From positions 157,688-221,687 of the forward strand of contig JAJEBV010000015.1 in the NCBI GenBank assembly GCA_022822365.1: a DNA stretch of 64,000 nt. The letters run 5' to 3'. Made by a program: the position numbers and the translations under genes. The notes below the pieces were generated by a model. It did not search any database, had not been told where the DNA came from, and was given only the letters and a program-made list of their open reading frames with translations. Positions 11,810 through 64,000 of this stretch are shown piece after piece. How positions within the stretch are numbered: position 1 is the stretch's first letter; every line of letters begins with the position of its first letter. The DNA is from Thermoanaerobaculia bacterium. GTDB taxonomy: Bacteria > Acidobacteriota > Thermoanaerobaculia > Multivoradales > Multivoraceae.

Positions 11810-11897
11810 CGGCGCGAATCGTAGCCTTGTGGTCGGAGAACAAGGACGCTGGCCTCCGGCCAGCGACCTTGGCCCCCACATCCCGACTTGGCGGCGA

Positions 11898-14428: not shown

Positions 14429-16594
14429 GTGCAGCTACCACGTAACCCACTCGACCTGCTCCAGCTACTACCGGCGCTCTTGATCGCTACTCTGGCCACG
14501 ACAGCAGCGCTTAGCGCCCTCGATGACACTACGTCCGGCGAGGGAGCGAGCGAGGGTGGTCGCGCGGAGGCCGAGGACAGCGTGAGTGATGAGATCACTG
14601 TCTACGGCAAGCCACTCAACACTGCCAGCGAGACGGGCAGTCGGCTTGAACTGACCGTCCTGGAAACCCCGGCCACAGTGGACATCATTGACGGCGATGC
14701 GATCCGTGAACGCCTCGATACGACCGTGATGGAGGCCGTGACTCGCTCCGCCGGTTTCACGAATGACGGGCACCCGGGCAACGGTGGCCAGAACATGGCC
14801 GCCAGAGGATTCCGTGGCCAGGGGACGGTCACCAAGATGTTTGACGGCTCCAGCTACTACAACGCCTTCAACACGATCACCTTTCCCTTCGACACCTGGG
14901 GCATCGAGCGCATCGAGGTACTGAAGGGACCCGCCTCCGTACTGTACGGTGAAGGCGGCATCGGTGGCGCGTACAACGTCATCCCCAAACGACCGCAGCA
15001 GGAACACGCCGGAGAAATGCGTGCCACGGTCGGTGAGAACGACACCCGTTTCCTCGGCCTCGGCCTGACCGGCGGTCTCGCCGACAACCTCGCTTACCGG
15101 CTTGACTACAGCAACAACCAGTCTGACAACTGGGTGGACAGAGGCGACAGCGAAGCCGAGATGATCTCCGCCTCGTTGCTGTGGCAGGTCACGGACGATT
15201 TCTCACTGACAGGCCGATACGATCAGGGCGACCAGGAGCCCATGAGGTACTTCGGGATACCGCTGGTCGACGGAGCTGCGCCCACTGAACTCGTGACAAA
15301 AAACTACGACGTCAACGACGGGAGGATCCGTTACCAGGACGACTCTGCCCGGATCAAGGCCAACTGGAACATCAGCGAACGCCTGTCCATGCAATCCGAG
15401 CTGTACCGCCTGAACAGCGATCGTTTCTGGAAGACGCTCGACTACTACCAGTACGATCGGGCCGCCGCCACGGTCAGACGGGAATCGCCTCTGGTGATCG
15501 CTCATGACATAGAGCACGACGGATTCCGCACCAACTTCGTGTTCGATGCCGGCGATGACGACCGCAAGCTGAAGACCTCCGCGGGCTTCGAAACTAACGA
15601 TCTGACTTTCGCGAGGGCAACCAACTTCGGCGGCGCGAACCCCAATGGAGTCGATTGGGTCAATGACTTCGACGTCGTCGATGCCTTCAACTTCGACCCC
15701 GGTGTGTTCACCGATATCACCGCGGCGATGCACCGGACGGAGATCATCTCCGACGTTGCCCAGATGGCGGTGTTTGCCGAGAGCCAGATCGGCCTCACCA
15801 GAGCACTGACACTGGTGGCGGGCCTCCGCCACGAGGATGTTGAAACGGACTACAACGACGTCAGCAACCCGCCGACTTTTGATCAGAGCGTGGACGCGTT
15901 GACAGGCCGGGCAGGACTGACTCTTGACCTTCGCGACAACACCGTGCTCTACGGCCAGTACACGACCGGCGCGACCCATCCGAGCAACAGCATCGTGCAG
16001 ACCTCCCCTACAAACAGCGGGCTGGATTTCATCAGGAGTGAGCAGGTCGAGGTCGGCATCAAGCAGCGACTCCTGGATACGCGGCTGTCCTGGAGTGTGG
16101 CCTTGTTCGACATTGTCAAGAACAACCTGATTGAGGATGATCCGAATTCCCTCAACCCCGATGACCTGATCATCATTCCGGAGCAGACTTCCCAGGGCGT
16201 CGAGTTCAACCTCACGTATGGGCTGACCAATGCCCTCACGTTGATGGCCACCGGGACTGTTCTGGATGCGGAGACCGATACCGGTGAGACACCGAGGGAG
16301 GTGCCCGAGGAGACCTTCAACCTGGGTCTCGTGTGGGCTCCGGTGGGCAAGCTGCAGCTATCGGCCGATGGCCGGTATGTCGGCGGACGCGCTCATCCCG
16401 ACGGCCCGATTCCCTCGTACACGGTCGTTGATGCATCCGCACGCTGGCGCTTCAACCCCGACCTTTCGGTTGCCCTGCGCCTCGACAACGTCTTCGATGA
16501 ACTCTACGCCGTTTCCGCGTACTACTGGCCCAATACCTGGCTTCTCGGCAAGCCCCGCACTGTCAGCCTGACCCTGGACTATGACTTCTTCTAG
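14429..16594 (+). CDS. TonB-dependent receptor (siderophore/metal type)
   Basis: Plug motifs (ETPATVDII, ERIEVLKGPASVLYG), beta-barrel pattern, NVFDELY, C-terminal aromatic residue; GAGGAG SD. Confidence 0.93.
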   Translation: MQLPRNPLDLLQLLPALLIATLATTAALSALDDTTSGEGASEGGRAEAEDSVSDEITVYGKPLNTASETGSRLELTVLETPATVDIIDGDAIRERLDTTVMEAVTRSAGFTNDGHPGNGGQNMAARGFRGQGTVTKMFDGSSYYNAFNTITFPFDTWGIERIEVLKGPASVLYGEGGIGGAYNVIPKRPQQEHAGEMRATVGENDTRFLGLGLTGGLADNLAYRLDYSNNQSDNWVDRGDSEAEMISASLLWQVTDDFSLTGRYDQGDQEPMRYFGIPLVDGAAPTELVTKNYDVNDGRIRYQDDSARIKANWNISERLSMQSELYRLNSDRFWKTLDYYQYDRAAATVRRESPLVIAHDIEHDGFRTNFVFDAGDDDRKLKTSAGFETNDLTFARATNFGGANPNGVDWVNDFDVVDAFNFDPGVFTDITAAMHRTEIISDVAQMAVFAESQIGLTRALTLVAGLRHEDVETDYNDVSNPPTFDQSVDALTGRAGLTLDLRDNTVLYGQYTTGATHPSNSIVQTSPTNSGLDFIRSEQVEVGIKQRLLDTRLSWSVALFDIVKNNLIEDDPNSLNPDDLIIIPEQTSQGVEFNLTYGLTNALTLMATGTVLDAETDTGETPREVPEETFNLGLVWAPVGKLQLSADGRYVGGRAHPDGPIPSYTVVDASARWRFNPDLSVALRLDNVFDELYAVSAYYWPNTWLLGKPRTVSLTLDYDFF

Positions 16595-16625
16595 GCCGCA
16601 CTAGCGCGGTCCCATCAGGCCCGCG

Positions 16626-18125
16626 ATGAGCCCTAGAAGGCTGCTTTACGTCAGCCACCGGTGGCTGGGTATCGCCATGTGCGGTTTCCTCGCCATGTGG
16701 TGCGTCAGCGGCGTGGTGATGATGTACGTCGGTTTCCCTGAGCTGACCAGGGACGAGCACTACGCCGGGCTTGAACCACTCGTTCCCGGCCGCGTCAACG
16801 TTGCTCCTGAAGGGCCCCTCGCTCTCGCCGGTTCGGACGCCCGCATCGAGCAACTGCTACTGACCAGCAGCGCGGAACGGCCCGTCTATCTGCTGAAGGT
16901 GGAAGGCGCCTCGTGGAGGGGCATGTACGCCGATACCGGCGCGGCCATCGACCGGCTGCCTGCGGAGGCGGCCGTGGCGGCGGCAGTCGGCTTCTCCAGG
17001 GCGCAAGATTCCGAGCAGCATTCCGGGAAAGCCGTAGCGGGCAAGCATCTCGAGCAGCTGCACATGGACCAGTGGTCCGTGTCTGATGGTCTGCACCCCT
17101 ACCGGCCGCTGCACCGGGTGGCGATCGACGACGGCATGGGCACGGAGCTGTACGTGTCGTCGTTGACCGGCCAGGTCGTACGCGACACCCGGCGCGGCGA
17201 GCGCATCTGGAACTGGATGGGTTCGAATCTGCACTGGATCTACCCGGTGCAGTTGCGCGAGCACCGCGGCGTCTGGGAGCAGGTCATCATCGTCCTTTCC
17301 CTGGCCGGCCTGGTTTCGGTGATCACCGGCGCGATCATCGGTCTCACGCGCCTGCGGCTGAGGCCCAGGTATCGGGACGGCTCCTGTTCGCCCTATCAGG
17401 GCATGACGAAGTATCACCACATCCTGGGCTTGCTGGCCTCGGTGGTCCTGCTGACGTTCCTGCTTAGCGGCCTGATGTCGGTGGGGCCCTGGGACGTGTT
17501 CGAATCCAGCAGCAGTTTCTCTGAACAGAAACAGCGCTACCGGCAGCAGGAGGGCGCCTCGCGGTCAGCTCCCGCGTACTCCGACGCCCAGGAGGTTCGG
17601 CAACTGATCCGTCAGGGCGCGGATTTTCCGGTCAAGGAGATTGCATGGCACTGGATCGGCGGCACGTCCCATGTCTCTCTGCACGGCTCCAGACACGAAG
17701 TCCAGTACGTGCCCGCTCCGGGCGAGACAGAGTCGCTGGAGCGGAAAGTTCATGGCCGCATCGCCAAACTCATTCCCGGCAGCGGCATCCTGGACCGGCA
17801 GCGGTTGGACAGTTACGACCTCTACTACTACTCCCATCACGACCGGCACCGCCCACTGCCAGCGCTACGAGTCGAGTTCGCCGATCCTGAGTCCACCTGG
17901 TTTCATATTGACCTGTCCACCGGCGAGATTCTCGATCGCCTCACCGACAGGCGCCGGCTGGAACGGTGGATCTTCAACGGGCTGCACACGCTTGACTTCA
18001 CCTTGTTGATCAATAGTCGACCTTCCTGGGACCTGGTGATGATCTTCCTTTGCAGCGGTATCTTCCTTTTCTCGGTGACATCCGTGGTCATTGCCGTGCA
18101 GTACCTGCGACGGAGAACGCGCTGA
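16626..18125 (+). CDS. PepSY-associated TM helix protein (iron-uptake associated)
   Basis: HRWLG, SGVVMMYVGFP, NLHWIY, HHILG, FNGLHTLDF. Confidence 0.88.
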   Translation: MSPRRLLYVSHRWLGIAMCGFLAMWCVSGVVMMYVGFPELTRDEHYAGLEPLVPGRVNVAPEGPLALAGSDARIEQLLLTSSAERPVYLLKVEGASWRGMYADTGAAIDRLPAEAAVAAAVGFSRAQDSEQHSGKAVAGKHLEQLHMDQWSVSDGLHPYRPLHRVAIDDGMGTELYVSSLTGQVVRDTRRGERIWNWMGSNLHWIYPVQLREHRGVWEQVIIVLSLAGLVSVITGAIIGLTRLRLRPRYRDGSCSPYQGMTKYHHILGLLASVVLLTFLLSGLMSVGPWDVFESSSSFSEQKQRYRQQEGASRSAPAYSDAQEVRQLIRQGADFPVKEIAWHWIGGTSHVSLHGSRHEVQYVPAPGETESLERKVHGRIAKLIPGSGILDRQRLDSYDLYYYSHHDRHRPLPALRVEFADPESTWFHIDLSTGEILDRLTDRRRLERWIFNGLHTLDFTLLINSRPSWDLVMIFLCSGIFLFSVTSVVIAVQYLRRRTR

Positions 18126-51777: not shown

Positions 51778-53307
51778 TCACTCCGCGAGCCGCCACCTCG
51801 GCGGCGCCACGAAACCGTCACGGCCTTCCCAGAAGATCGGCACATGCTCCTCCGGCTGCAGCGCCCGGAAGGCGAGCGCCTTCTCCGTCAGACGCTCGGC
51901 GATCTCCGGGTGCCCTGCTGACAGGTCGTTCTGCTCGCCGGGATCGTCTCCGAGGTGAAAGAGCATGGTCTGCGCTTCGGCGAGCGCCGCGCGGTCGAGC
52001 GGTTCGGGGCCGATGACGATCAGCTTCCAGTCCCCTTCCATCGCCATGAGCTGCTCGCGCTCGTTGCTCAATTGGGCGCACCAGGAGTAGAAGTCGCGGT
52101 CGCCGGCGACGTCGCCGCCCCGAAGCGCCGGCAGGGCATCGCGGCCGTCCAGTTCGAGATCGGGACGGTCGGAGACGGCCGCGGCCTCCATCAGCGTGGG
52201 CAACACGTCGAGGTAGTTGAGCGGCGCGCCGATCGAGCCGCCGCCGCTCACCCCGCCGGCAGGCCAGCGCGCCGCCGCCGCGACCCGGATGCCGCCTTCG
52301 AAGACGTTGCCCTTGGAACCCCGGAACGGCCGGTTGTCGCCGATGCCCGTGTCGCCGCCGTTGTCCGAGAAGAACCACACCAGTGTGTCGTCCGCCACGC
52401 CGGCCTCGTCGAGGGCATCGAGGATGCGGCCGATGCCGGCGTCCATCGCGTGCACCATCGCGCCGGTGATCCTGCGGTTCCGGAGACGGCCTTCCACGTC
52501 CTCGAGGCGCGCCCGGCTCATCGCGTGACCGCCGAACCACTCGTACTTCTCGGGCGGTACCCCCGCGCCGACGACCGCCTCGATCGGCACCGGCTCGAGG
52601 TCGGCATACCGCGGCAGATCCTCTTCCTTCGCCTGGAACGGCGAGTGCGGCGCGTTGTAGGGCACGAACAGGAAGAAGGGCGCGTCACCGTCGGCGTGCT
52701 CGCGAACGAAGCGCACCGCGTGCTCGGAGATCAGATCCGTGCTGTAGCCCGGCTCGTCGACCGACTCCTCGTCGTGGAACCAGTCGACCTCGCCGTAGCG
52801 CTCGTGCGTGAAGTAGTCGAAGCCCCAGCCGAGGTGGCCGACGAAACGCGTGAAGCCGCGCTCGAGGGGGTGGTACTCGCTGCGCGACAGACCCAGATGC
52901 CACTTGCCGACGAGGCCGCGCTGCTCGTAGCCGGCATCGGCGAGCACCTCCGGGATGAGAGTCGCCTCGGGATCGAGACCGTAGTCGTGGTACCCCATGA
53001 CGACGCCGCGCATCATCCCGTAACGGATCGGATGCCGGCCGGTCATCAGGCCGGCGCGAGTCGGCGAGCAGATCGGCGCCACGTAGAAGCGATCGAGCCT
53101 GACGCCCTCCGCGGCGATGCGGTCGATGTGGGGGGTGGCGATGTCGCCGCCGTTGAAGCTGACGTCGCGCCAGCCGAGGTCGTCGGCGACGATGAGCACG
53201 ACGTTGGGCGGCCGTTGCGCTCCCGCTTCCCCGGCCTCCTCGGCCGGCGTACAGCCGAGCAGGAGGATGACCGTCGCGAGCACGATCCCGTGTTCCGTCC
53301 TCATCAC
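51778..53307 (-). CDS. Arylsulfatase, lipoprotein
   Basis: LLGC lipobox, ADDLGW, CSPTRAGLMTG, GKWHLG, SDNGG. Confidence 0.93.
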   Translation of the reverse strand: MMRTEHGIVLATVILLLGCTPAEEAGEAGAQRPPNVVLIVADDLGWRDVSFNGGDIATPHIDRIAAEGVRLDRFYVAPICSPTRAGLMTGRHPIRYGMMRGVVMGYHDYGLDPEATLIPEVLADAGYEQRGLVGKWHLGLSRSEYHPLERGFTRFVGHLGWGFDYFTHERYGEVDWFHDEESVDEPGYSTDLISEHAVRFVREHADGDAPFFLFVPYNAPHSPFQAKEEDLPRYADLEPVPIEAVVGAGVPPEKYEWFGGHAMSRARLEDVEGRLRNRRITGAMVHAMDAGIGRILDALDEAGVADDTLVWFFSDNGGDTGIGDNRPFRGSKGNVFEGGIRVAAAARWPAGGVSGGGSIGAPLNYLDVLPTLMEAAAVSDRPDLELDGRDALPALRGGDVAGDRDFYSWCAQLSNEREQLMAMEGDWKLIVIGPEPLDRAALAEAQTMLFHLGDDPGEQNDLSAGHPEIAERLTEKALAFRALQPEEHVPIFWEGRDGFVAPPRWRLAE

Positions 53308-53393
53308 CTAAGTCCGTTCCCTCCTGCTTTCGCTTGCGAAGACGCACCCACGCTACAAGAATGCAGAATCCCCTTCCACAAGGAGAGCCGACG

Positions 53394-54368
53394 ATGAGCA
53401 CAGCCGCCCTCGCCTACCTCGGTGTCCGCTCGGACAAGCTGGAAGACTGGAACGACTTCGCCTGCAACCTGCTCGGCATGCAGCAGGTCGACCGCGGGGG
53501 CAAGTCCCTCTCCTACCGGATGGACAACTTCGAGCAGCGCCTGCTGGTCTCCGACGAACCGGGCGACACGCTCTCCTTCATGGGCTGGGAGGTTGCCGGC
53601 GAGGACGATCTCGAGGGCTTCGCCACGAAGCTGGACGCGGCCGGCGTCGAGGTGGACTGGGGAAGCTCCGAACTCGCCGACCGGCGCTTCGTCGAGCGTC
53701 TTCTCGTCTGCCACGACCCCGACGGGAACCGCGTCGAGCTGGTGTGGAAGCCGATGCGCACCAGCGACCCGTTCGTGCCGGGCAGGACGATTTCGGGCTT
53801 CAAGACGGGCCCGCTCGGCATGGGGCACGCGGTCCTGCACGTCACCGACATCGAGAAGCAACTGGCCTTCTACCGCGACCTCCTGGGCTTCGAGCTCACC
53901 GACTTCGGCAACATGCCGCTCGTCCCCATCCACTTCCTGCACGTCAACGGCCGTCACCACAGCCTGGCGATGATCGCCTCCGGGCAGAAGGGCTTCCACC
54001 ACTTCATGGTCGAGTTCCAGTCCCTCGACGACGTCGGCCAAGGCTACGACCTGGCCGGGGCGACGGAAGACCGGGTGGGCTTCACCCTCGGCCGGCACAC
54101 CAACGACTTCATGACGTCCTTCTACGCCCGGACGCCCTCCGGCTTCTTCGTCGAGAACGGCTGGGGCGGCCGGATCATCGACCCGGAGACCTGGCAGCCC
54201 GTCGAACTGTTCGACGGCCCGAGCCTCTGGGGCCACGACTGGGTCGACCTGCCGGACGAAGCCAGGACGATGGCGCGCAACTTCCGGATCGATCTCGCCT
54301 CGCGCGGCGTCCAGTCTCCGCCTTTCATCGATTGCCCGTGGCTGTTCGAGCAGGTGGCGAAGACGTAG
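53394..54368 (+). CDS. Extradiol ring-cleavage dioxygenase (BphC/HsaC-like, VOC family)
   Basis: MGHAVL, RHHSLA, HHFMVE, LGRHTND, SFY, ENGWG. Start at ATG 53394. Confidence 0.92.
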   Translation: MSTAALAYLGVRSDKLEDWNDFACNLLGMQQVDRGGKSLSYRMDNFEQRLLVSDEPGDTLSFMGWEVAGEDDLEGFATKLDAAGVEVDWGSSELADRRFVERLLVCHDPDGNRVELVWKPMRTSDPFVPGRTISGFKTGPLGMGHAVLHVTDIEKQLAFYRDLLGFELTDFGNMPLVPIHFLHVNGRHHSLAMIASGQKGFHHFMVEFQSLDDVGQGYDLAGATEDRVGFTLGRHTNDFMTSFYARTPSGFFVENGWGGRIIDPETWQPVELFDGPSLWGHDWVDLPDEARTMARNFRIDLASRGVQSPPFIDCPWLFEQVAKT

Positions 54369-54380
54369 CCCGTCAGCCCG

Positions 54381-55727
54381 TCACCCGCCGTCGCCCGGGT
54401 CGAAGCGCTTCTCGAGTCCGGTCCAGCAGTCCGTGTAGTCGTCCTGTAGCGGCGCCTCCCGGGCCGCGAACTCGGTCAGGTGCTGCGGGAAGCGGGTCTC
54501 GAACATGAAGCTCATCGTGTTCTCCAGCTTCTTCGGAGCCAGTTCAGCGGAGGTCGCGGCCTCGAAGGCGTCGGCGTCCGGGCCGTGGGGCAGCATCATG
54601 TTGTGCAGCGACAGACCCCCCGGCGCGAAGCCCTCGGGCTTGGCGTCGTAGATGCCGTGGATGTTGCCCATCAGCTCGGACATGATGTTCTTGTGGTACC
54701 ACGGCGGCCGGAATGTGTGCTCGGCGACGCTCCAGCGATCGCGAAAGAGCACGAAGTCGATGTTGGCGGTACCCGGCACGCCCGACGGCGCGGTCAGGAC
54801 CGTGAAGATCGAAGGGTCGGGGTGGTCGAAGAGAACGGCGCCGACCGGCGCGAACGCCTCCAGGTCGTACTTCGAGGGCGCGTAGTTGCCGTGCCAGGCG
54901 ACGATGTCGAGCGGAGACTGGTCGATGTCCGTCGCGTGGAAGCGGCCGCACCACTTCACCACCAGCCGTGACGGGACCTCGCGGTCCTCGAACGCCGCTA
55001 CTGGGGTCTTGAAGTCGCGCGGGTTGGCGAGGCAGTTGGCGCCGATCGGCCCGCGGTTGGGAAGGCCGAACTTCGCGCCGTAGTTCTCGCACACGAAGCC
55101 CCGGGCCGGGCCCTCGGTGACCTCGACGCGAAAGACCATGCCGCGCGGCAGGATCGCGACCTCCCGCGGCTCGAGGTCGATCCGCCCGAGTTCCGTCCAG
55201 AACACGAGCCGGCCGTCCTGGGGCACGACCAGCAGTTCCGAGTCCGCCGAGTAGAAGTACTCGTCGACCATGCTCTCGGTGGCGAGGTAGACGTGCGCGG
55301 CCATCCCCACCTGGGTGTTGACGTCGCCGGCGGTCGTCATCGTGCGCATGCCGGTAAGGAACGTCAGCGCCTCGGTCGGGTGAGGCACCGGGTCCCAGCG
55401 GTACTGACCGAGCGAGATGACGTCGTCGACGATGTGCGGGGCCGTCCGCCAGTAGGGCAGGTCGACGCTCCGGAAGCGCGACGTGTGCCTGACCGACGGA
55501 CGGATGCGGTAGCACCAGGTGCGCTCGTTCTCACCCTGCGGCGCGGTGAAGGGTGTGCCCGAGAGCTGTTCCGCATACAGGCCATAGGCGCAGCGCTGCG
55601 GACTGTTCTGGCCCTGCGGCAACGCCCCCGGCAGCGCCTCCGTCTCGAAGTCGTTGCCGAACCCGGGCATGTACCCGGGCATCGTCCCGCAGGGGGTTTC
55701 GGCCTGGACGATCCGGCGTCCCGTCAT
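54381..55727 (-). CDS. hmgA: Homogentisate 1,2-dioxygenase
   Basis: [65 protein letters not shown]. Confidence 0.98.
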
Positions 55728-55745
55728 GGGTCGAACGCTCCCTCT
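55724..55745 (-). repeat. 22-nt direct repeat copy A (leader and start of hmgA)
   Basis: AGAGGGAGCGTTCGACCCATGA, identical to 57684-57705. Confidence 0.9.
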
Positions 55746-55780
55746 AGCCGTGCTTCGGCTAAGGGGATTCTAGTCGCCGA

Positions 55781-56470
55781 TCAAGCCGCCGTCAGATCGA
55801 TGGGCTCCTGCTTCACGATCTTCCGGCAGATCGTGAGGCACGGCTGAAAGCTGTCCCGCCCTGTCAAGCGCTCAACGAGGCCGGCCACTCCGGGCCACCG
55901 CGACGCGTCGAGCGGACCGGCGACGAACTCGAACTGCGCGATCTGACACGCGAGCGAGATATCCGCGATCGTCAGCGCGTCTCCCACCAGGAACGGCTCG
56001 TCGCCGACTTCGCCCTCGAGATAGTCGAGACGCCGTGGAAGCCGCTCCTCGTACGTCTTCCTGGCCGTGTCGACGTCGGGCTCCTTGCCCATGAAGCGGT
56101 TGAACTGGATCGGGCGGAAGATCCCGAGGCCGATCGCCATCGCCAGCTCGGTGTCGCAGTACTCCTCCAGCCAGACCGCGCGACCGCGTTCGTAGGGGTC
56201 CGCCGGATAGAACGCGGGCTCCGGGAACTTCTGCTCGACGTAGGCGCAGATCGCCGACGAATCGGGGATCGTGCCAGGCGGACCTTCCTCGCCGACGTCC
56301 GTGTCGCGCAACACCGGAATCCGACGGGCCGGACTGATCTCCTTGAACCAGTCGGGCATCGGCATGATGTTCACGCTCTCCAGCTCGAAGGGCGCGCCCT
56401 TCTCGCGCAGCAGGACATCCGCCTTTCGAACGAAAGGAGAGAGGGGGGCTCCGTAGAGGATGAGGCCCAT
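55781..56470 (-). CDS. Glutathione S-transferase family protein
   Basis: SPFVRK, SPARRIPVL, DSSAICAY, LTIADI. Confidence 0.9.
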   Translation of the reverse strand: MGLILYGAPLSPFVRKADVLLREKGAPFELESVNIMPMPDWFKEISPARRIPVLRDTDVGEEGPPGTIPDSSAICAYVEQKFPEPAFYPADPYERGRAVWLEEYCDTELAMAIGLGIFRPIQFNRFMGKEPDVDTARKTYEERLPRRLDYLEGEVGDEPFLVGDALTIADISLACQIAQFEFVAGPLDASRWPGVAGLVERLTGRDSFQPCLTICRKIVKQEPIDLTAA

Positions 56471-56481
56471 CCTGGCGGCGC

Positions 56482-57687
56482 CTAGCGCCCCGGCATCACC
56501 AGCGGTTCGATCGGCACTTCGATCGTGACGGTCTCTTCCTTCGGCACGTAGCAGACCGTCTCGCTGCAGGCCTGGTAGACGACGTCGACCGGAATCTCGA
56601 TCGAGGTCGGCTTGTCCTGAATCGGCCAGTTGAGAATCTCGGCGTTCAGCGCGATCGGGATGGCGATGTCGGTCACGCCTTCCTCGTAGACGTTGAGCGT
56701 CACGTCGAGCTGGGGGAACTCACGCTTACGGGTCGCCGGGTAGACCGGCTCGCCCAGCCGCACGCCCTTGGTCGGCACGACGGTCGCCGTCGATGCGATG
56801 AAACCGTCGGGCAGGGGGTCGGCGTAGATGTGGTAGCCGTCGGCGACGTCGAAGCGCACATGGAGGGTGCTCGAGTACTCGAACTTGAGCGCCTCGTCGG
56901 CGAGGAAGACGGACACCTCGACGTGCTCGTCGCCCAGTTCGGCGGTCGGCGCCTCGTGCTTGGCGAGGATGCGGCCGATCGCGCTGTCGCGAATCGTCCC
57001 GGCCGACGTGCGCGTCGCGTAGTGGCGGTGGAAGAACTTCTCCGTCACGCGGCCCTCACCGTCGGTGACGTAGACGCCAGGGAAGGGAATGCCGTAGAAG
57101 CCCCGCTCGGTGGCGCGGTTGAACACATCCGAGTCGGGGTCGATCGTCGTGTTCAGGATGCCGAAGCGCTTGATGACTTCCGAGTCGTAGTCGGAGAGCA
57201 GGTCATAAGAGATGTCCTTGCTGTCGGCGAAGGCCTTCAGATGCTGCTCCGAGTCGTAGCTGACGCCATAAACCTTGATGCCCTCGGCGTCGAAGAGCGA
57301 GATGTTCTCTTGCAGCTCGACCAGCTGCGTGCGGCAGTACGGTCACCAGACGGCGGAGCGGTAGAAGACCACGATGGCCTTCGAGTCGCCCCGGTCCGCG
57401 TGGAAGTCGACGAGTTCGCCGTTCTGGTTCGGCAGCTCGAACTCGGGCAGGCGCTCGCCGATCGCGGGACCGGTCGGGAACTCGTGGTCCGCCGGATAGC
57501 GCCGTCCCGGGTGGCTCGTCGGAATGGGCACCGTGATGCCGAGGTCGTCCTGCCGTGCCTCCGGCGACTGGTTCTCGTGAGCGCCCTTCACTCTCTCATT
57601 CTCGTTCCCGGCGCCGTCCTGGGCGAAGGCCGGAACGGCGAAGAGCAGCGGGACAAGGGCGAGCAAGGCGAATCGGCCTGTCTTCAT
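56482..57687 (-). CDS. Exported selenoprotein: AhpC/TSA-type UxxC domain fused to a DsbD N-terminal-like domain (in-frame UGA at 57343-57345)
   Basis: ORFs 57343-57687 and 56482-57126 are in the same frame. Read-through gives FYRSAVW-U-PYCRTQLVELQE...VYGVSYD...LLSD...FG, then HIYADP...YQACSETVCYVP. Confidence 0.88.
57312..57328 (-). promoter_or_regulatory. Putative bacterial SECIS element
   Basis: mRNA GCAGCU-GGUCG-AGCUGC, a 6-bp stem at +15 to +31 after the UGA. Confidence 0.7.
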
Positions 57688-57705
57688 GGGTCGAACGCTC
57701 CCTCT
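57684..57705 (-). repeat. 22-nt direct repeat copy B (leader and start of the selenoprotein gene)
   Basis: Identical to 55724-55745. Confidence 0.9.
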
Positions 57706-57830
57706 GACGGTGGTTGCGCTGTACGGGTTCGGGGTCAGCGACGGTACCAGCCATGCCGTGGAGGCTCAACCGGCAACCTGCTGCAACGCGTAGGATACGC
57801 CCTTCAATCCACCGGAAGGATAAAGAGATC

Positions 57831-59495
57831 ATGAGACGACGCTCCGGAGTGACTCGACGCGGTCTGGTCGGCCTCGGTCTCGCGATTGTCCTCGCGGGAG
57901 GCGCCGCGGGCGCGGCTGCCTACCGGCAGGGCACGACCCAACTCGCGCAGCAGCAGCCCGCCATCGGTCCGACCCAGACGATCGACTGGCAGTCGGGCGC
58001 CGACCCCATGGGCCGACCCGCCGCGGAGAGGCCGCCCAACATCGTCGTCATCCTCGCCGACGACCTGGGCTGGAACGACCTGAGCTGGCTCGGCGGCGGA
58101 GTCGCTGGCGGCACGGTGCCGACCCCGAACATCGACTCGCTGGCCCGCGATGGCGTCCACTTCGCCAACGGCTACTCGGCCAACGGCACCTGCGCTCCGT
58201 CGCGGGCCGCCCTGATGACGGGCCGCTACGGCACCCGCTTCGGTTTCGAGTTCACGCCGACGCCGGACGGATTCGCCACGATGGTGCCCCGGCTCTCGAA
58301 CCGGGAAGGCCGGCTCCGGCAGACGAGCGCCAACGAGGAAGCGTCTTCGGTTCCGTTCGCGGACAAGGGGATGCCGCCCTCCGAGATCACGCTCGCCGAG
58401 CTGCTCAAGCCGGCCGGCTACCACACCGTGCACATCGGCAAGTGGCACCTCGGCGGGGCCGACGGCATGCGAGCCCACGAGCAGGGCTTCGACGAGAGCC
58501 TGCTCATGAGGAGCGGCCTGTACCTGCCCGAGGACGACCCGAACGTCGTCAACTCGAAGCAGGAGTTCGACGGCATCGACCGCTTCCTGTGGCGCTTCTC
58601 GCGCTTCGAGGCTTCGTTCAACGACAGCCCAGCCTTCGAACCCGGCGGGTACCTGACCGACTACTACACCGACCAGGCGGTTCAGGTGATCGAGGCGAAC
58701 AAGGACCGGCCCTTCCTTCTCTACCTGGCGCACTGGGCGGTGCATACGCCGCTCCAGGCGCTGCGCGCCGACTACGAGGCGCTGTACCACATCGAGGAGC
58801 ATCGCCTGCGGGTCTACGCCGCGATGGTCCGCTCGCTCGACCGCAGCGTCGGCCGGGTGCTCGAGGCGCTGCGCGAGAACGGCCTCGAAGAGAACACGCT
58901 CGTCTTCTTCACCTCCGACAACGGGGCGCCGGCCTACATCGGCCTGCCGCGCGTCAACGAGCCGTTCCGGGGCTGGAAGATCAGCTTCTTCGAGGGAGGC
59001 ATCCACGTGCCCTACCTCCTGAAGTGGCCGGCCCGTCTCAGCGGAGGTCAGGTCTACGAAGCTCCCGTGCACGGCTTCGACATCTTCTCGACCGCGGCGG
59101 CCGCGGCGGGCGTCGACCTGCCCGGCGACCGGAAGATGGACGGAGTCGACCTGGTGCCGCACGTCCTGGGCAAGGCCGAGGGCCCGCCGCACGACCGTCT
59201 CTTCTGGCGCACCGGCGGCTATCAGGTCGTCCTCGCCGACGGCTGGAAACTCCAGATCAGCGATCCGCCCGGGAGAGCATGGCTCTTCAACATGGAGAAG
59301 GATCCCACCGAGCAGCACAACCTCGCCGACACCGAGCCGGAGCGGGTCGCGGCCCTGAAGAAGCTCCTCGCCGAGCACAACAAAGAGCAGGCGACGCCGA
59401 TCTGGCCGTGGGCCACCCGAAGCCCGATCAACATCGACAAGACGCTGCTCGATCCGGACGCGCCGGACGACGAGTACATCTACTGGTACAACTGA
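57831..59495 (+). CDS. Sulfatase with Tat-like leader
   Basis: TRRGL, ADDLGW, CAPSRAALMTG, GKWHLG, SDNG. Start moved to ATG 57831. Confidence 0.92.
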   Translation: MRRRSGVTRRGLVGLGLAIVLAGGAAGAAAYRQGTTQLAQQQPAIGPTQTIDWQSGADPMGRPAAERPPNIVVILADDLGWNDLSWLGGGVAGGTVPTPNIDSLARDGVHFANGYSANGTCAPSRAALMTGRYGTRFGFEFTPTPDGFATMVPRLSNREGRLRQTSANEEASSVPFADKGMPPSEITLAELLKPAGYHTVHIGKWHLGGADGMRAHEQGFDESLLMRSGLYLPEDDPNVVNSKQEFDGIDRFLWRFSRFEASFNDSPAFEPGGYLTDYYTDQAVQVIEANKDRPFLLYLAHWAVHTPLQALRADYEALYHIEEHRLRVYAAMVRSLDRSVGRVLEALRENGLEENTLVFFTSDNGAPAYIGLPRVNEPFRGWKISFFEGGIHVPYLLKWPARLSGGQVYEAPVHGFDIFSTAAAAAGVDLPGDRKMDGVDLVPHVLGKAEGPPHDRLFWRTGGYQVVLADGWKLQISDPPGRAWLFNMEKDPTEQHNLADTEPERVAALKKLLAEHNKEQATPIWPWATRSPINIDKTLLDPDAPDDEYIYWYN

Positions 59496-59555
59496 GCGGG
59501 GCTGAGAGCGCCCCTACCCTTGAGCGGGCAGGTTCTCCGTTAGGGCTTCGGTGGG

Positions 59556-60587
59556 CTAATCGTCGCCGTCACCAGCCTTCAGCACGTGGACGAGGAAGTC
59601 GACCGCCTGCTGGTTGTAGATGGACGGAGTCGCCGTCGGGAGCTTGCCACTCGCCTTGTACTCGTCCGCCTGCTTCTTGTTCCGGAAGTTGTAGGCAGAG
59701 TAGTCCCGGTTGCTCTTGAGATCGTTTTCCCGGATAGCAGCCCAGATCTGGTTCTGCTTCGCTCCTGACGCCTCCTGCACGGCCTGAGCGAGCTCCATCG
59801 CCGAGAGAGGATACTCACGGATGAGGTTCTCTCGGACCCGCTTCACGATCTCGACCTTGTCGATCGGGCGCACGTCGCCGACGAGCTTGAGTGTCGGTGC
59901 ACCGAAGCGTTCCTCAAAATCTCCCTCTTTGATGAAACGCAGCTTGCTCGCCAACTGGTCCTCAACTACGAGGACCTGGGCATCATGCTTCCGTATCAAA
60001 GCCCGCTCGGTATCGAGCACGGCCGCGTTACCTGGACCCGCGGCTCCGATCTTCTGGACCAAGTCGAGCCACTCCTGGTTGTTCCGCTCGATCCGCCGAT
60101 CGATGATCCTCTCGAGTTCCCCGTACTGAACTCGCTGCGTTCGGCCGCCGTAGCGATAGTAGATCTCGCCGTTCTTGATCTCCGGCCCCTTACCTGCGTC
60201 CTTCTTCGCAACCACGGGCTTCTGTCCCGCAGGGCTCACCCGGAAGACACCGAACACCCTCCCTTCTATCTCGAAGCTGGCCTGTTCCCAGTCAACCGAG
60301 GGGGAGAAGTAGTCCAGCAGGTACCCGCTGATCCTCTCCGGATCGATCTTCTCGAACTGGTCTCGCGCGGAGTCCGACAACCCGGCTGGGATTCTTGGCG
60401 AGTCCGTAACGCCAAACACGAGATAGCCGCCGCGGTTGTTGGCAAAGCCCGCGAAGTCACGAAAGTACTCGGCGAGGCCAGCAAGATTGAACTGCTCCTT
60501 GAACTCCAGCTCTTGGCTTTCTCGGTGAAAGAGCCGGCCGTCGGGCTTCACTCGGAGCACTTCACGGATGTGGTCAGGGTCGATCAA
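59556..60587 (-). CDS. Schlafen/AlbA_2 domain protein with an uncharacterised C-terminal region
   Basis: RESQELEFKE, AGFANNRGGYLVFGVTD, YYRYGG. Confidence 0.85.
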   Translation of the reverse strand: MIDPDHIREVLRVKPDGRLFHRESQELEFKEQFNLAGLAEYFRDFAGFANNRGGYLVFGVTDSPRIPAGLSDSARDQFEKIDPERISGYLLDYFSPSVDWEQASFEIEGRVFGVFRVSPAGQKPVVAKKDAGKGPEIKNGEIYYRYGGRTQRVQYGELERIIDRRIERNNQEWLDLVQKIGAAGPGNAAVLDTERALIRKHDAQVLVVEDQLASKLRFIKEGDFEERFGAPTLKLVGDVRPIDKVEIVKRVRENLIREYPLSAMELAQAVQEASGAKQNQIWAAIRENDLKSNRDYSAYNFRNKKQADEYKASGKLPTATPSIYNQQAVDFLVHVLKAGDGDD

Positions 60588-60661
60588 GGACTAGCGAGAG
60601 GTCGAGGAGTTGTTGAAGTGAATCACGCGGCGAACCCTCTTGGGTGCTCAACGTGAACCGT

Positions 60662-61618
60662 TCACCGTGGACCGCCCCCGATCTTCCGCATTCCCATCAG
60701 TTCAACCGGCGTTCCAACGAGGTCGAAATCACTCGGAGGCTCCTGGGCGTACTGCTTCCACCGATGTCTGTACTGCTGTTCCGACAGCAGGGTGATGTCG
60801 TCGGTTGCACCGGCATCGCCGGTGTCGAGGCCAGCTCCGAACTGAATGCCGCAGAGTTCGGTCAGCACATACCGGTTGTGCATTTGGTCGCGGCCGTTCT
60901 TACGCTCGAGCCGCCGGACAACGACCCTTAGGCCCTCCGGGACGCGTCGGGGGAGCTTCTCCTTGCATGCGTCACGAAAGTACTCGTGGGTGCCCCGATT
61001 ACGGGAAAAGTCGGTGAGGATGGTGAGTTGCTCTGGTGGAAGACCCGGTCTGCTGCGCGACATGCGCTCGCAGAAGCTCTCGAGCACTTCCAGGTTCTCG
61101 GATCGCTTCGGTCGGAAATAGGGGTCCACGAGGACAATGCGCTTGCTCAGTCGGAGTGTCGAAGCGATGGCGTCAGCCATTGCTTCCGCCCGCCTGTCGA
61201 CGACGACGCCCCGCGTCACCTGCCAAAGCGGGTCGTCGTCGATGTCGTCGTGGAGCAGAACGGCCGCGTGCCCTCCCGGATTCGAGCCAGCGACGATCGC
61301 GCGAAAGGGACAGCGTTCGTGTTCTCGTAGCGCGCTGGCTAGCCAATCGACGTTCGTGCCCGGCTTCCGCTCGGCGTCCGACCGATCGATCATCCGGCGC
61401 TTGAGCTTGCGAAGGAGCAGCTTCAACTGAGTCCTACGTCGCGTGCTCCCTGCGTACTCAGATTCGTTGAAGGCGTCCAGTACGTCGTTGCGCCATTGGG
61501 CCGGCCAGCGGGACACGACCCGTCCACCGTCCATCGAGAACTGGCTCCTGTAGTAGCGAGCCTGGTCTTCGGTCCATGTGCCAACCAGGCGGGGCTCCAA
61601 CGCAAACTCCCGGATCAT
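60662..61618 (-). CDS. Hypothetical protein with a PLD-like C-terminal domain (nuclease candidate)
   Basis: IVLVDPYF and HNRYVLT...GAGLD resemble DPY / H(D/N)R / GLD motifs of divergent PLD-fold domains; 2 nt from the ATPase stop. Confidence 0.7.
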   Translation of the reverse strand: MIREFALEPRLVGTWTEDQARYYRSQFSMDGGRVVSRWPAQWRNDVLDAFNESEYAGSTRRRTQLKLLLRKLKRRMIDRSDAERKPGTNVDWLASALREHERCPFRAIVAGSNPGGHAAVLLHDDIDDDPLWQVTRGVVVDRRAEAMADAIASTLRLSKRIVLVDPYFRPKRSENLEVLESFCERMSRSRPGLPPEQLTILTDFSRNRGTHEYFRDACKEKLPRRVPEGLRVVVRRLERKNGRDQMHNRYVLTELCGIQFGAGLDTGDAGATDDITLLSEQQYRHRWKQYAQEPPSDFDLVGTPVELMGMRKIGGGPR

Positions 61619-61620
61619 CC

Positions 61621-63420
61621 TCAGAACAGTTCCTCTTCGCGCTCGTCAAAGAACCCATCCGGCCAAGGGTGTTCGAAGTCGCCGTCCGGCGTGGTGGGCA
61701 GGTGGACGATCTCGGCCCCGTCAGGGCCCGGCTGGATGTACAAAACGGCGACATCCTCCGGGCAAACCGCCGGCTTGCCGTCCAGTTCGCCGTCTGTCGT
61801 CTCCCGGATGCGACGCAGGATGCGGAGAATCAGATGCTCGCTATGCGTCTCGATAAGGAATCGGTTGCCGGACTCGCCTAGTGCCGACTCAAGAAACACG
61901 TCCCCAAGTTCCGCCTGAAGGGCCGGATGCAGGTGGATTTCGGGCTGCTCGATGGCGATCAGTTTGGCAGAAGATGCGTACGCCGACACCAGCACTGGAA
62001 GCACCTGACTCACGCCGAATCCCACGTCGCGGTGGCTGACAGGAGTGGTGGAGCGCTTGGCTATCAGCACCAAGTCTTGATGGGCCTCGCCGCGCGACAC
62101 GACTTCCGCAACGATCTCACGGACCCATTCGTCCGCGACGACGTCGGCGTCGACAATGGCGTCCACGACTTCTCCGACAGCCAGCAACGTCTCGTCGAGA
62201 GCCCCGCTCTCGACGTCTGGCCCCAAGTCCGCGTGCTGGCGGATCAGATCCAGCACCGAAGCAAGCTCGGCCGACAGCGGGCCGTCGCGCTCCGTTTGTT
62301 CGAGCACAGATAGCGCGAGTTCGTAGAGCTTGGGACCGAGCCTCTTCGCCAAGGGAGCGTCAAGGACGTCGGCGGGGAGCAGATCTCGAAGCCGGAGTTC
62401 GTAAGGCGTCTTGAGATCTCCCAGCCATCGGTTCACTCGATCCCTGATGTCGCTCCGACTTCGGACGACGTCCCACGCCCAGCCGCCTCCGGCAATCCAG
62501 TTCGGGTCGTGGTGTTGGGGGGACATCAGACTCCGGGGTGGATACGACCGGAGGGGCCCCAGGTAGAGCAGCCTGCGGATCTCCTCTTCCAGCACCTCGG
62601 AGAGGCCGCCCAGCAGCTCGCGCAACACATCCGGCAGCAAGTGCCGCGCTGCCTGGGCCAGGTTCTCCTGCCTGTAGCCGCGGCCGATCGGCCGGAAGGT
62701 GCTCTCGGTTGCAACCTGCTCGGTACGCAGAAACATGCCGCCACTCCGTCTAACGGCGATCTGCGGCACGAGTTGATCCACGACTTCGGCGAAAGTGGCC
62801 AGATCCTCATCCTGGAGGTCTTGAGCGGTGGTTGAGAACTCCAAGACCCCTCGAAACGCCTCGCGGAAGACCGGGTGTGAATGGTCGGCGCGGTCCAACT
62901 GGAGGCCCGCGCCCCGACGGACGCTCAGAGCGAGCAGCTCCCGACCGTCGGCACCAACCGCGAAACGCTGGGCTCCGACCTGGCCGTCCCGGTAGGCGCC
63001 TTCCATGCCGACGCCAACCTCAACCTCCACCCTTTGCGCCGAGCCCAGAATCTCCGCCAATCTCCCTGAGAGCTTGGCCGGATCCAGCGCGAAAGTCAGG
63101 GTCACCTCCTCGTCCACCCGCCGACGATGCACGTACTGCCCGAAACCTCCCAAGTCGATGGAGTCTCCTCCTAGGCGTGTCCGGTGGACGTCCAAGTCGC
63201 CGGTCTCGACCGCGTGGTGGGCGAGAGCCAAGGCATGAAGGACGCTCGACTTGCCGGCGCTGTTGGCGCCGAAGAGGAGCGTCAGGGGCCGCAGCGGCAC
63301 GCGCTGCGATTGCCCGAACGCCTTGAAGTTGGCGACGCGAAGGGAGTTGAAGGCGCTCAAGATTCCGTACCTGAGGTCGCCCACGGGGGCCGGAAGTCGC
63401 GACTCCATGCCAGGAGGCAA
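61621..63420 (-). CDS. ABC/SMC-type AAA_21 ATPase with C-terminal DUF3696
   Basis: NFKAF, GANSAGKS (Walker A), DVGFGVSQVLP, IEQPEIHLHP, IETHSEH, WPDGFFDE. Start uncertain. Confidence 0.9.
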   Translation of the reverse strand: MPPGMESRLPAPVGDLRYGILSAFNSLRVANFKAFGQSQRVPLRPLTLLFGANSAGKSSVLHALALAHHAVETGDLDVHRTRLGGDSIDLGGFGQYVHRRRVDEEVTLTFALDPAKLSGRLAEILGSAQRVEVEVGVGMEGAYRDGQVGAQRFAVGADGRELLALSVRRGAGLQLDRADHSHPVFREAFRGVLEFSTTAQDLQDEDLATFAEVVDQLVPQIAVRRSGGMFLRTEQVATESTFRPIGRGYRQENLAQAARHLLPDVLRELLGGLSEVLEEEIRRLLYLGPLRSYPPRSLMSPQHHDPNWIAGGGWAWDVVRSRSDIRDRVNRWLGDLKTPYELRLRDLLPADVLDAPLAKRLGPKLYELALSVLEQTERDGPLSAELASVLDLIRQHADLGPDVESGALDETLLAVGEVVDAIVDADVVADEWVREIVAEVVSRGEAHQDLVLIAKRSTTPVSHRDVGFGVSQVLPVLVSAYASSAKLIAIEQPEIHLHPALQAELGDVFLESALGESGNRFLIETHSEHLILRILRRIRETTDGELDGKPAVCPEDVAVLYIQPGPDGAEIVHLPTTPDGDFEHPWPDGFFDEREEELF

Positions 63421-63441
63421 CGAGCAACCAGTGAACGGTGG

Positions 63442-64000
63442 TCACGACTCATCGAGACCCCCATCGCCGACCCGTTCGTGGGCAGCCAGCAAGTACTGGA
63501 TGTAGGTCCGGATGAGGTCGCAGAAGAGTCGAGCCTCGTGCTCCTCAATGTCCGCAGGGTCGGCGATGTCCGTTCCGTGGCGAATGCCGCCACCTGTTGG
63601 CGACGAGAGGTAACCGTAAAGTCCCATGGCCCATCCGAGAACCTGCTCGAGGGCGCCCCCCTTGTGGATCCTGCGAAGGTCATGCACGATCTGGCTGAAG
63701 TACTTGCCTTCGACGGAACCGGAGGACGTGGCCATTCCCTTGAAGGCCGTCGCTACGGTCTCCATCAGCCAGAGAACCTCCTGAACGGCCTGCCGGTAAC
63801 TCCCGTCGTTCAAGAGCCTCTCTGAGTTCTGGAGGGAGCGTTGGATCAGCGCGTTCGTTCTCTCGCTGGCCGTTGGGGCCGAGACGGCGACGGGCTCGAC
63901 ACCAACCGTCGCTCGGATGATCTTGGGCGGATCAACTTGGAATCCCGTCCCGTGCTGACGCAGCACGCGATTGACATCCGGCACACTGGCCACTGGGGCA
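63442..64000 (-). CDS. AbiJ-like / HEPN-type C-terminal domain protein (5' end off the window)
   Basis: The frame stays open to the window edge; LYGYLSSPTGGGIRHG...EARLF...YIQYL resembles AbiJ C-terminal domains. Confidence 0.6.
   Translation of the reverse strand, partial: APVASVPDVNRVLRQHGTGFQVDPPKIIRATVGVEPVAVSAPTASERTNALIQRSLQNSERLLNDGSYRQAVQEVLWLMETVATAFKGMATSSGSVEGKYFSQIVHDLRRIHKGGALEQVLGWAMGLYGYLSSPTGGGIRHGTDIADPADIEEHEARLFCDLIRTYIQYLLAAHERVGDGGLDES

Follow-up and report, generated by a model that had tools for sequence, protein, structure and literature searches.

Menshen is reportedly a three-protein defence system (NsnA-NsnB-NsnC) described by Millman in 2022. In its ATPase NsnB the Walker B dyad is changed to E-N and GxG stands in place of SGG; the effector NsnC has an inactive PIN-like domain at its N-terminus and a nuclease domain at its C-terminus, and its PB-PLD1 class is marked, as is MIT_C, by an acidic residue and an H-D-R motif (Li et al. 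NAR 2025, PMC12065111). HEC-03, consisting of an ATPase and a PIN protein, both genes of which are needed, defends E. coli (Payne et al. 2024, bioRxiv 10.1101/2024.01.29.577857). RtcR-like proteins have been associated as a family with systems for restriction-modification (R-M) (Makarova 2014, PMC4012209) and head superoperons that terminate in CoCoNuT (Bell, Makarova, Wolf, Koonin, eLife 2024, PMC11090510). Menshen, HEC-03 and the RtcR-headed CoCoNuT superoperons are the closest precedents of the locus described here, which comprises four minus-strand genes at 59556-64000 of a 64,000-nucleotide (nt) stretch of DNA from a Thermoanaerobaculia bacterium (GenBank assembly GCA_022822365.1, contig JAJEBV010000015.1, positions 157,688 to 221,687 of the forward strand), the whole of which is referred to as the window.

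The genes were numbered g1 to g4 in order of window position. The conserved unit of the locus is an RtcR-like regulator, a sigma-54 promoter, an NsnB-like ATPase (g3) and an NsnC-like effector of the MIT_C type with a phospholipase D (PLD) fold and an H-N-R motif (g2), without an NsnA of the DUF262 kind. The four genes of the window are probably the tail of a defence array of ~12 kilobases (kb), transcribed in one direction, the head of which lies beyond the window end. As the best explanation overall, with a probability of roughly 0.6, the unit of regulator, sigma-54 promoter and ATPase-PLD pair is taken to be the conserved frame of a defence array that bears cargo.

Genes that stay together in related loci

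A first-pass annotation, made from the letters of the window, had proposed a four-gene candidate anti-phage module of an AbiJ/HEPN-like protein (g4), an AAA_21-DUF3696 ATPase (g3), a PLD-like protein (g2) and a Schlafen/AlbA_2 protein (g1), and had recommended extension of the contig to the right and a survey of gene neighbourhoods, both of which were carried out. The open reading frame (ORF) listing of the window confirmed four co-oriented, closely packed ORFs on the minus strand at 59556-64000, with gaps of 74, 2 and 21 nt for g1-g2, g2-g3 and g3-g4, respectively, the last being 33 nt if g3 starts at its ATG. Four tightly spaced co-oriented genes are unremarkable by chance, and the locus is called a defence locus because of its domain content and the comparative data.

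Public contigs carrying the locus were found by exact-protein look-up of g3 in its form of 595 amino acids (aa), which starts at the ATG. One of these contigs, L001 (ENA ERZ23491617, scaffold_876), is 100% identical to window 52000-64000 (12 kb) and is therefore a valid continuation of the locus; coordinates were converted as window position = 73409 - L001 position. On the transcribed strand, L001 carries, in this order, the activator, the sigma-54 promoter, hsdR-hsdM-hsdS, g4, g3, g2 and g1, followed by a convergent sulfatase gene. The array reaches ~7.5 kb past the window edge, up to the RtcR-like activator and its sigma-54 promoter, and the informative part of the locus thus lay outside the window. 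The nearest genome records are metagenome-assembled genomes of Thermoanaerobaculia / 'Ca. Multivorans' from the Acidobacteriota.

For the survey, one genome per species was scanned with a g2 alignment, which yielded 80 loci; L001, L013 and L015 were included in the counts, giving 83. Six-frame ORFs of these loci, which were drawn from Acidobacteriota, Latescibacterota, Gemmatimonadota, Desulfobacterota, Binatia, Betaproteobacteria and other groups, were searched with the proteins of the window and of L001. A g3-like ATPase was located directly upstream of the g2 homologue in 76/78 loci with enough sequence, whereas g4 was found in 0/82 and g1 in 1/82 other loci, the single case being L018. The closest relatives differ at exactly these cargo genes, L018 being without g4 and L017 without g1. 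The slot between hsdS and the ATPase was found to vary, with a NACHT-like 1506-aa protein, a SIR2 fusion, Gabija GajA and GajB, a Ser/Thr kinase set, a ThiF-JAB or a PcfJ-like protein, and downstream of the pair Thoeris, TIR-SLOG, GmrSD or ordinary genes were encountered.

Based on the co-occurrence counts and the variable slot, the four-gene 'module' was resolved into one conserved pair and two independent pieces of cargo. The module originally proposed, in which infection is sensed by a single ATP-binding cassette (ABC) ATPase that governs three effectors of nuclease type (g4, the PLD-like and the Schlafen protein), would fit the co-orientation, the spacing of 21, 2 and 74 nt and the defence-like features of all four genes; it is nevertheless highly improbable, as the ATPase and the PLD protein are the only two that co-occur across the 82 other loci, the closest relatives lack g4 or g1, and both g4 and g1 have many homologues that stand alone in settings unrelated to this one. 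Type I R-M, g4 and g1 are rather likely to be interchangeable cargo, inserted between promoter and pair or after the pair.

An orthologue of the sigma-54 activator was present upstream in 40/58 loci having at least 9 kb of upstream sequence, with phmmer E values mostly from 1e-160 to 0 and of about 1e-75 to 1e-108 in a few loci. Among these 40, hsdRMS was situated between activator and ATPase in 19, and the ATPase followed the activator directly in 21; in 8 further loci hsdRMS reached the edge of the fetched sequence. No DUF262/GmrSD_N was found among the called genes of L001, in line with the missing DUF262 partner of the first-pass annotation. Elsewhere DUF262 was detected in three loci, always downstream, namely in L049 and L057 (phmmer with a single GmrSD query, of limited sensitivity) and in L047 (Pfam).

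The RtcR-like regulator and its sigma-54 promoter

The regulator gene (L001 1878-3389, transcribed strand) lies beyond the window end. Its product was matched by NCBIfam RtcR at 2.4e-109 over residues 3-491, with 367 bits under an equivalog cutoff of 650, and by Pfam Sigma54_activat (3e-68), AAA_lid_14 and HTH_8, while the RtcR N-domain scored 22.3 bits, the cutoff being 23.1. Among the called neighbours neither RtcB nor RtcA domains were present, and by score and linkage the protein is not a canonical RtcR. Head-to-head with the regulator gene, a 384-aa protein without Pfam match is encoded on the minus strand of L001 (491-1645).

A perfect TGGCAC-N5-TTGC site was located at L001 3390-3404 (TGGCACGCCGCTTGC), 1 nt after the regulator stop; the junction reads TGA followed by TGGCACGCCGCTTGCTCT, then a GAGGAAG ribosome-binding site and the hsdR ATG at 3439. 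In most loci the site begins 1-4 nt past the stop codon of the regulator. Sites of at least 8/10 followed the regulator in 33/43 loci, against a background of 0.11 per 500 nt, and a perfect site was found within -40 to +250 of the stop in 22/42 loci with co-oriented regulator; in the 2.78 megabases scanned, perfect sites totalled 37, these 22 included. In loci with a divergent (L068, L077) or non-adjacent (L061, L066) regulator, perfect sites were found 62-63 nt upstream of the ATPase instead, and the second ATPase of tandem pairs is preceded by a site at 18-30 nt (perfect in L028; 9/10 in L035, L039 and L062). Upstream of the regulator gene itself no sigma-54 motif was apparent (3 weak matches among 38 loci), and none was found inside the window at 59.5-64 kb.

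These arrangements are most simply read as descending from a unit in which regulator, sigma-54 promoter, ATPase and PLD gene followed one another, with R-M and other defence genes inserted downstream of the promoter. Since the regulator and promoter directly precede the pair in 21 loci, the pair is regarded as the primary sigma-54 target and the R-M operon looks like an insertion. The same 21 loci, in which no R-M genes intervene, speak against four neighbouring but independent defence genes with own unrecognised promoters, the upstream sigma-54 promoter then serving hsdR only, as do the very short gaps and overlaps within the array. Such independence is quite unlikely, although scans for consensus promoters carry no information in this phylum, a promoter could fit into the 74-nt gap ahead of g1, and R-M systems normally need constitutive expression.

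A second sigma-54-like motif (9/10; TGGCACCGGGGCTGC) was noted inside hsdR at L001 3847-3861, and recurs at +458 nt from the regulator stop in L018, L026, L030, L033 and L034; either a secondary promoter or simple conservation of the coding sequence could account for it. No sigma-70-like promoter and no convincing terminator were found in the region, although such scans mean little in this phylum.

The ATPase-PLD pair and its cargo

The ATPase gene g3 (61621..63420, minus strand) encodes 599 aa from TTG 63420 or 595 aa from ATG 63408, the latter start being used in public gene calls. The assignment as AAA_21-DUF3696 ATPase was upheld by Pfam matches to AAA_15 (6e-20), AAA_21 (2e-17) and DUF3696 (23.2 bits against a cutoff of 22; C-terminal DUF3696 helix), and by PADLOC matches to NsnB (1.3e-46), PDC-M55A (5e-40) and HEC-03B (2.4e-33), with AriA (1e-20) and GajA (1e-10) far more distant. 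Walker A (GANSAGKS), a signature-like GFGVSQ, Walker B (IAIEQPE) and an H-loop (THSEH) were identified, the protein having the NsnB-type deviations, i.e., Walker B D-E changed to E-Q and SGG changed to GxG. Among the 69 partner ATPases, the E-Q dyad (IEQPE) is present in at least 62 and Walker A in 66. In classical ABC ATPases, a change of the Walker B E to Q traps the ATP-bound state; by analogy, the natural E-Q dyad of g3-type ATPases suggests slow or regulated hydrolysis.

The gene g2 (60662..61618, minus strand; L001 11791-12747) encodes a two-domain PLD-fold protein of 318 aa, with an N-terminal alpha/beta domain (about 1-135) and a C-terminal PLD-fold domain. Its start 2 nt after the ATPase stop was considered correct based on the family N-terminus MIxE[FY]ALEP, the public calls in L001 and L002 starting 84 nt late (290 aa). 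No Pfam, PADLOC, NCBIfam or PDB sequence match was obtained, and a g2 profile searched against PDB sequences found nothing. A word-indexed homologue search returned 13 matches, suggestive of a rare family; this was overturned by an exhaustive profile search, in which 2915 cluster representatives were recovered at E<=1e-3 and 1098 at E<=1e-30. No g2 relatives were found on viral contigs.

The call as PLD-like protein was supported by fold. An AlphaFold2 (AF2) model was obtained with a predicted local distance difference test score (pLDDT) of 75, and Foldseek aligned its C-terminal domain with a Streptomyces PLD (2e-5), SauUSI, PLD3, MITD1 (2ymb) and NgoAVII, at a probability of about 1.0 and E values from 2e-5 to 1e-3, the query-normalised template modelling score being ~0.3 since half of g2 aligns. 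D165, H247 and R249 are invariant in 38 diverse members; D165 follows the strand 160-164, and H247-N248-R249 leads into the strand 249-253. The motif H247-N-R249-Y-V-L-T-E254 departs from the canonical HxK(x)4D in that R replaces K, and divergent paralogues bear H-D-R in place of H-N-R. This corresponds to the MIT_C-like / PB-PLD1 motif, in which strand 2 is followed by an acidic residue and strand 5 is preceded by an H-D-R-type motif, though neither the Pfam MIT_C profile nor a PADLOC NsnC model was matched at E<=0.1. For the N-terminal domain, the AF2 model shows an order of elements like that of PIN domains (the search having been made with the whole protein only), while Pfam and PADLOC gave no PIN or HEC-03 partner match. 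Taken together, g2 is the predicted effector partner of the g3 ATPase.

Tandem ATPase-PLD pairs after one RtcR-like gene were observed in L028, L035, L039, L041, L043, L044, L062, L069 and L083, mostly from Vicinamibacterales; the PLD protein of the first pair is very divergent in these loci, with H-D-R instead of H-N-R.

A decayed Menshen system, in which NsnB and NsnC were left as a non-functional remnant after loss of NsnA (DUF262), might be suspected from the best PADLOC match of the ATPase (NsnB, 1e-46), from the NsnC-like two-domain layout of g2 and from the PLD effector class known in Menshen. Such decay is hardly credible, however, given that the pair is conserved without DUF262 across many phyla, with frames intact, Walker A in 66/69 ATPases and invariant D/H/R residues in g2. 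Furthermore, there are pairs with sigma-54 promoters of their own and pairs in tandem duplication, the place directly upstream of the ATPase that nsnA would need is mostly taken by hsdS or the regulator, and two-gene HEC-03 works without NsnA.

The cargo begins with a complete Type I R-M operon directly upstream of g4 on the same strand and outside the window (L001 3439-9123; Pfam and PADLOC), which substantiated the defence island first suggested from the window. It consists of hsdR (L001 3439-6180, corresponding to window 67229-69970; ResIII/EcoEI_R_C; PADLOC REase_I 1.5e-77), hsdM (L001 6200-7849; N6_Mtase/HsdM_N; PADLOC MTase_I 1.7e-136) and hsdS (L001 7846-9123; Methylase_S; PADLOC Specificity_I 1.6e-54), all on the transcribed strand. 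In HsdR, the usual HSDR_N/ResIII/EcoEI_R_C domains are preceded by a weak N-terminal Peptidase_S24 (LexA/UmuD-like) match (residues 95-202; 5.5e-6; 26.5 bits against a cutoff of 23.3), an odd fusion for a restriction subunit.

Of g4, the window contains the 3' 559 nt (63442..64000, minus strand); no upstream stop is present there, and the gene is cut by the window end. The full-length gene (L001 9116-9967, transcribed strand) encodes 283 aa and overlaps the hsdS stop by 8 nt. The AbiJ/HEPN-like assignment found no support: the full-length protein gave no Pfam match at E<=1, no NCBIfam match and no AbiJ/HEPN profile match, nor was a significant PDB sequence, profile or fold match obtained. Only a weak PADLOC match (2.7e-6) to PDC-S32, itself an untested candidate, was found. 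The Rx4-6H motif was not detected in g4, in which the conserved GGGIRHG has R and H adjacent. AF2, run on the 97% identical P0014, gave a confident helical N-domain and a C-domain with pLDDT <50, and on this C-domain the best HEPN structure, 2hsb, was aligned at a non-significant E of 2.2 (probability 0.57). The family comprises at least 577 proteins, about 281 aa long, in which the motif SSPTGGGIRHG is invariant; homologues occur singly, next to toxin-antitoxin pairs of the PIN kind or ahead of GmrSD. We list g4 as a candidate defence gene that stands alone and was placed between hsdS and the ATPase. In L033 ('Ca. Multivorans'), a 281-aa protein with C-terminal DUF4145, of a length like that of g4, is encoded downstream of the pair (11164-12009); hhalign gave no relationship between the two (probability 0.6%).

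At the 3' end of the array, g1 (59556..60587, minus strand) encodes a 343-aa Schlafen/AlbA_2 protein, as first called, with a Pfam SLFN_AlbA_2 match of 2.3e-17 over residues 23-153; the C-terminal half (about 160-343) has no domain assignment. The protein aligns with the N-domain structure of rat Slfn13 (5yd0), the catalytic triad of which is E205/E210/D248 (PMC5862951); the corresponding E23/E28/D62 of g1 are conserved in 120/120, 120/120 and 118/120 homologues, respectively. At least 1247 homologues of about 60-88% identity were found in many phyla, and identities of 60-70% were noted between Acidobacteriota, Geomonas, Cyanobium, Pirellulaceae and Krumholzibacteria. The high conservation of the family points to strong constraint and to horizontal spread. 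As the homologues stand as solitary genes, for instance within a Geomonas element with integrase and TrwC or amid housekeeping genes, g1 is regarded as a stand-alone candidate RNase, carried as cargo.

The lower GC content that had been reported for the four genes is real (0.61-0.66 at 59-64 kb, compared with about 0.67-0.72 in most other parts of the window) but modest, and a similar dip at 15-18 kb holds ordinary genes. This second low-GC stretch (window 14429-18125; 0.60-0.63) encodes a TonB-dependent receptor and a PepSY_TM protein, and is not a second defence island. Scans of the locus revealed no Rfam families, flanking direct repeats or nearby tRNA marking an integration site, and no flanking repeats or integrase were seen in L001.

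Proposed mechanism and comparison with known systems

In the proposed mechanism, the RtcR-like protein would sense an infection- or damage-derived signal, which by analogy with RtcR may be RNA ends with 2',3'-cyclic phosphate, or the binding of the regulated proteins themselves, and would then switch on sigma-54 transcription of the whole array. RtcA and RtcB reportedly bind to the CARF domain of RtcR (PMC9650030). An ATPase oligomer may hold the N-terminal domain of g2 via the DUF3696 helix, as modelled for NsnB-NsnC (PMC12065111), and on sensing phage material would release or activate the putative PLD-type phosphodiesterase. The g4 protein and the candidate Schlafen-type RNase with its intact E-E-D triad would be independent single-gene defences that share transcription.

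A wider reading is put forward tentatively, and with less than even confidence: the locus would represent an unnamed widespread module, in which transcription takes over from the DNA-binding sensor NsnA of Menshen: an RtcR-like CARF/sigma-54 activator, sensing infection-linked RNA damage or a nucleotide signal, would induce an NsnB-like ATPase and an MIT_C-type PLD protein from a promoter next to the activator's own stop codon. Between this promoter and the pair, such modules would have repeatedly captured Type I R-M, Gabija, NACHT, SIR2 and defences of one gene each, turning whole islands, a restriction enzyme included, into a damage-inducible regulon.

Alternatively, regulator, ATPase and PLD protein might form a stress-induced module for repair or processing of nucleic acids, like RtcR-RtcBA, near which defence genes just accumulate. 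The regulator is most similar to RtcR, a controller of RNA repair, and the PLD superfamily has repair phosphodiesterases such as Tdp1, a structural neighbour of PB-PLD1 (PMC12065111); moreover, neither relatives on viral contigs nor flanking repeats or an integrase in L001 were seen, and the defence role of the unit is itself deduced. The alternative is nonetheless unlikely, considering that the ATPase belongs to the NsnB/HEC-03/PDC-M55 defence group, that defence cargo sits inside the transcription unit between promoter and pair, that tandem duplication and high divergence are typical of conflict systems, and that the GC content is below that of the surroundings.

Several points weigh against the explanation preferred here, a sigma-54-controlled ATPase-PLD unit within a cargo-bearing defence array. 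The defence function and the inducing signal of the array are inferred from sequence. The PIN-like nature of the g2 N-domain, as modelled, follows from the order of secondary-structure elements alone, and the motif of its C-terminal domain is not the canonical HxK(x)4D, leaving PLD-type catalysis putative. The PLD folds of MITD1 and TrmBL2 are not known to be enzymes. The CARF assignment of the regulator N-domain is provisional, being just under the Pfam threshold. That sigma-54 transcription would run over 10 kb as far as g1 is deduced from the common orientation, the short gaps and the lack of recognisable sigma-54 or sigma-70 motifs in between, and in Acidobacteriota scans for promoters are not reliable. 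There are probably constitutive promoters inside the array (likely for hsdM/S), because with restriction genes expressed only upon induction the DNA of the host would stay unmethylated. The survey took in the 80 loci most closely related (at least 30% identity), which are phylogenetically non-independent, and 10/58 loci have neither regulator nor R-M within 10 kb. In the literature, coverage of which was incomplete so that this is absence of evidence only, no paper was found that links an RtcR-like regulator to a DUF3696 ATPase-PLD pair or reports the promoter.

If the preferred explanation is true, context and a testable role would be provided for the unannotated g2 family (about 2,900 clusters at 50% identity, no Pfam model), and Menshen-type ATPase-effector pairs would exist sensor-less under sigma-54 control. 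The fixed consensus -24/-12 promoter would be sequence-level evidence that RtcR-like regulators switch on multi-system defence arrays, an idea previously based on gene order only. An inducible Type I restriction enzyme would in turn raise the question of self-DNA protection. For annotation, the locus is a caution that co-oriented defence genes are not to be read as a single system.

Compared with Menshen, the locus shares an NsnB-type ABC ATPase with C-terminal DUF3696 helix, replaced Walker B dyad (E-Q in g3, E-N in NsnB) and GxG for SGG, a predicted effector laid out like NsnC, with an N-terminal alpha/beta and a C-terminal nuclease-type domain, the latter bearing the acidic residue and H-[DN]-R signature of PB-PLD1/MIT_C, and the neighbourhood of Type I R-M, which Menshen also often adjoins. 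In contrast to Menshen, NsnA (ParB-DUF262 and ParBDB) is absent here and from nearly all 82 related loci, g2 matches no PADLOC NsnC model, g3 is about 250 aa longer than the NsnB profile, and the pair occurs together with a sigma-54 promoter and an RtcR-like activator, a linkage that has not been described for Menshen. Without NsnA, by which Menshen is defined, the locus does not count as a Menshen system.

HEC-03 likewise consists of two genes, for an ABC ATPase and a small effector, embedded in another defence system, and its ATPase profile matches g3 at 2.4e-33. Its effector, however, is a VapC-like PIN protein, whereas g2 is of PLD fold and gave no match to PIN profiles, and HEC-03 was discovered within Hma systems rather than downstream of Type I R-M or an RtcR-like regulator. 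PARIS AriAB, Gabija, AbiL and RloA/RloB also combine an AAA_15/21 ATPase with a separate nuclease-type effector, often beside hsd genes, but have TOPRIM/OLD-type effectors and distinct ATPase subfamilies. With the Schlafen endoribonucleases acting on tRNA/rRNA (SLFN13, PMC5862951), g1 shares the AlbA_2/Schlafen core and the three putative catalytic acidic residues; unlike SLFN13 it is a bacterial 343-aa protein of a single domain and a tail, and is not specifically linked to the ATPase-PLD pair.

The CoCoNuT superoperons resemble the array in overall order, with a gene for an RtcR-like CARF-AAA+-HTH protein at the 5' end, then optional co-directional Type I R-M and other defence genes, and a terminal anchor. 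The anchor here is the ABC ATPase and PLD-like pair, not the McrBC-type CoCoNuT, and a consensus sigma-54 promoter is placed at a fixed position directly after the regulator stop.

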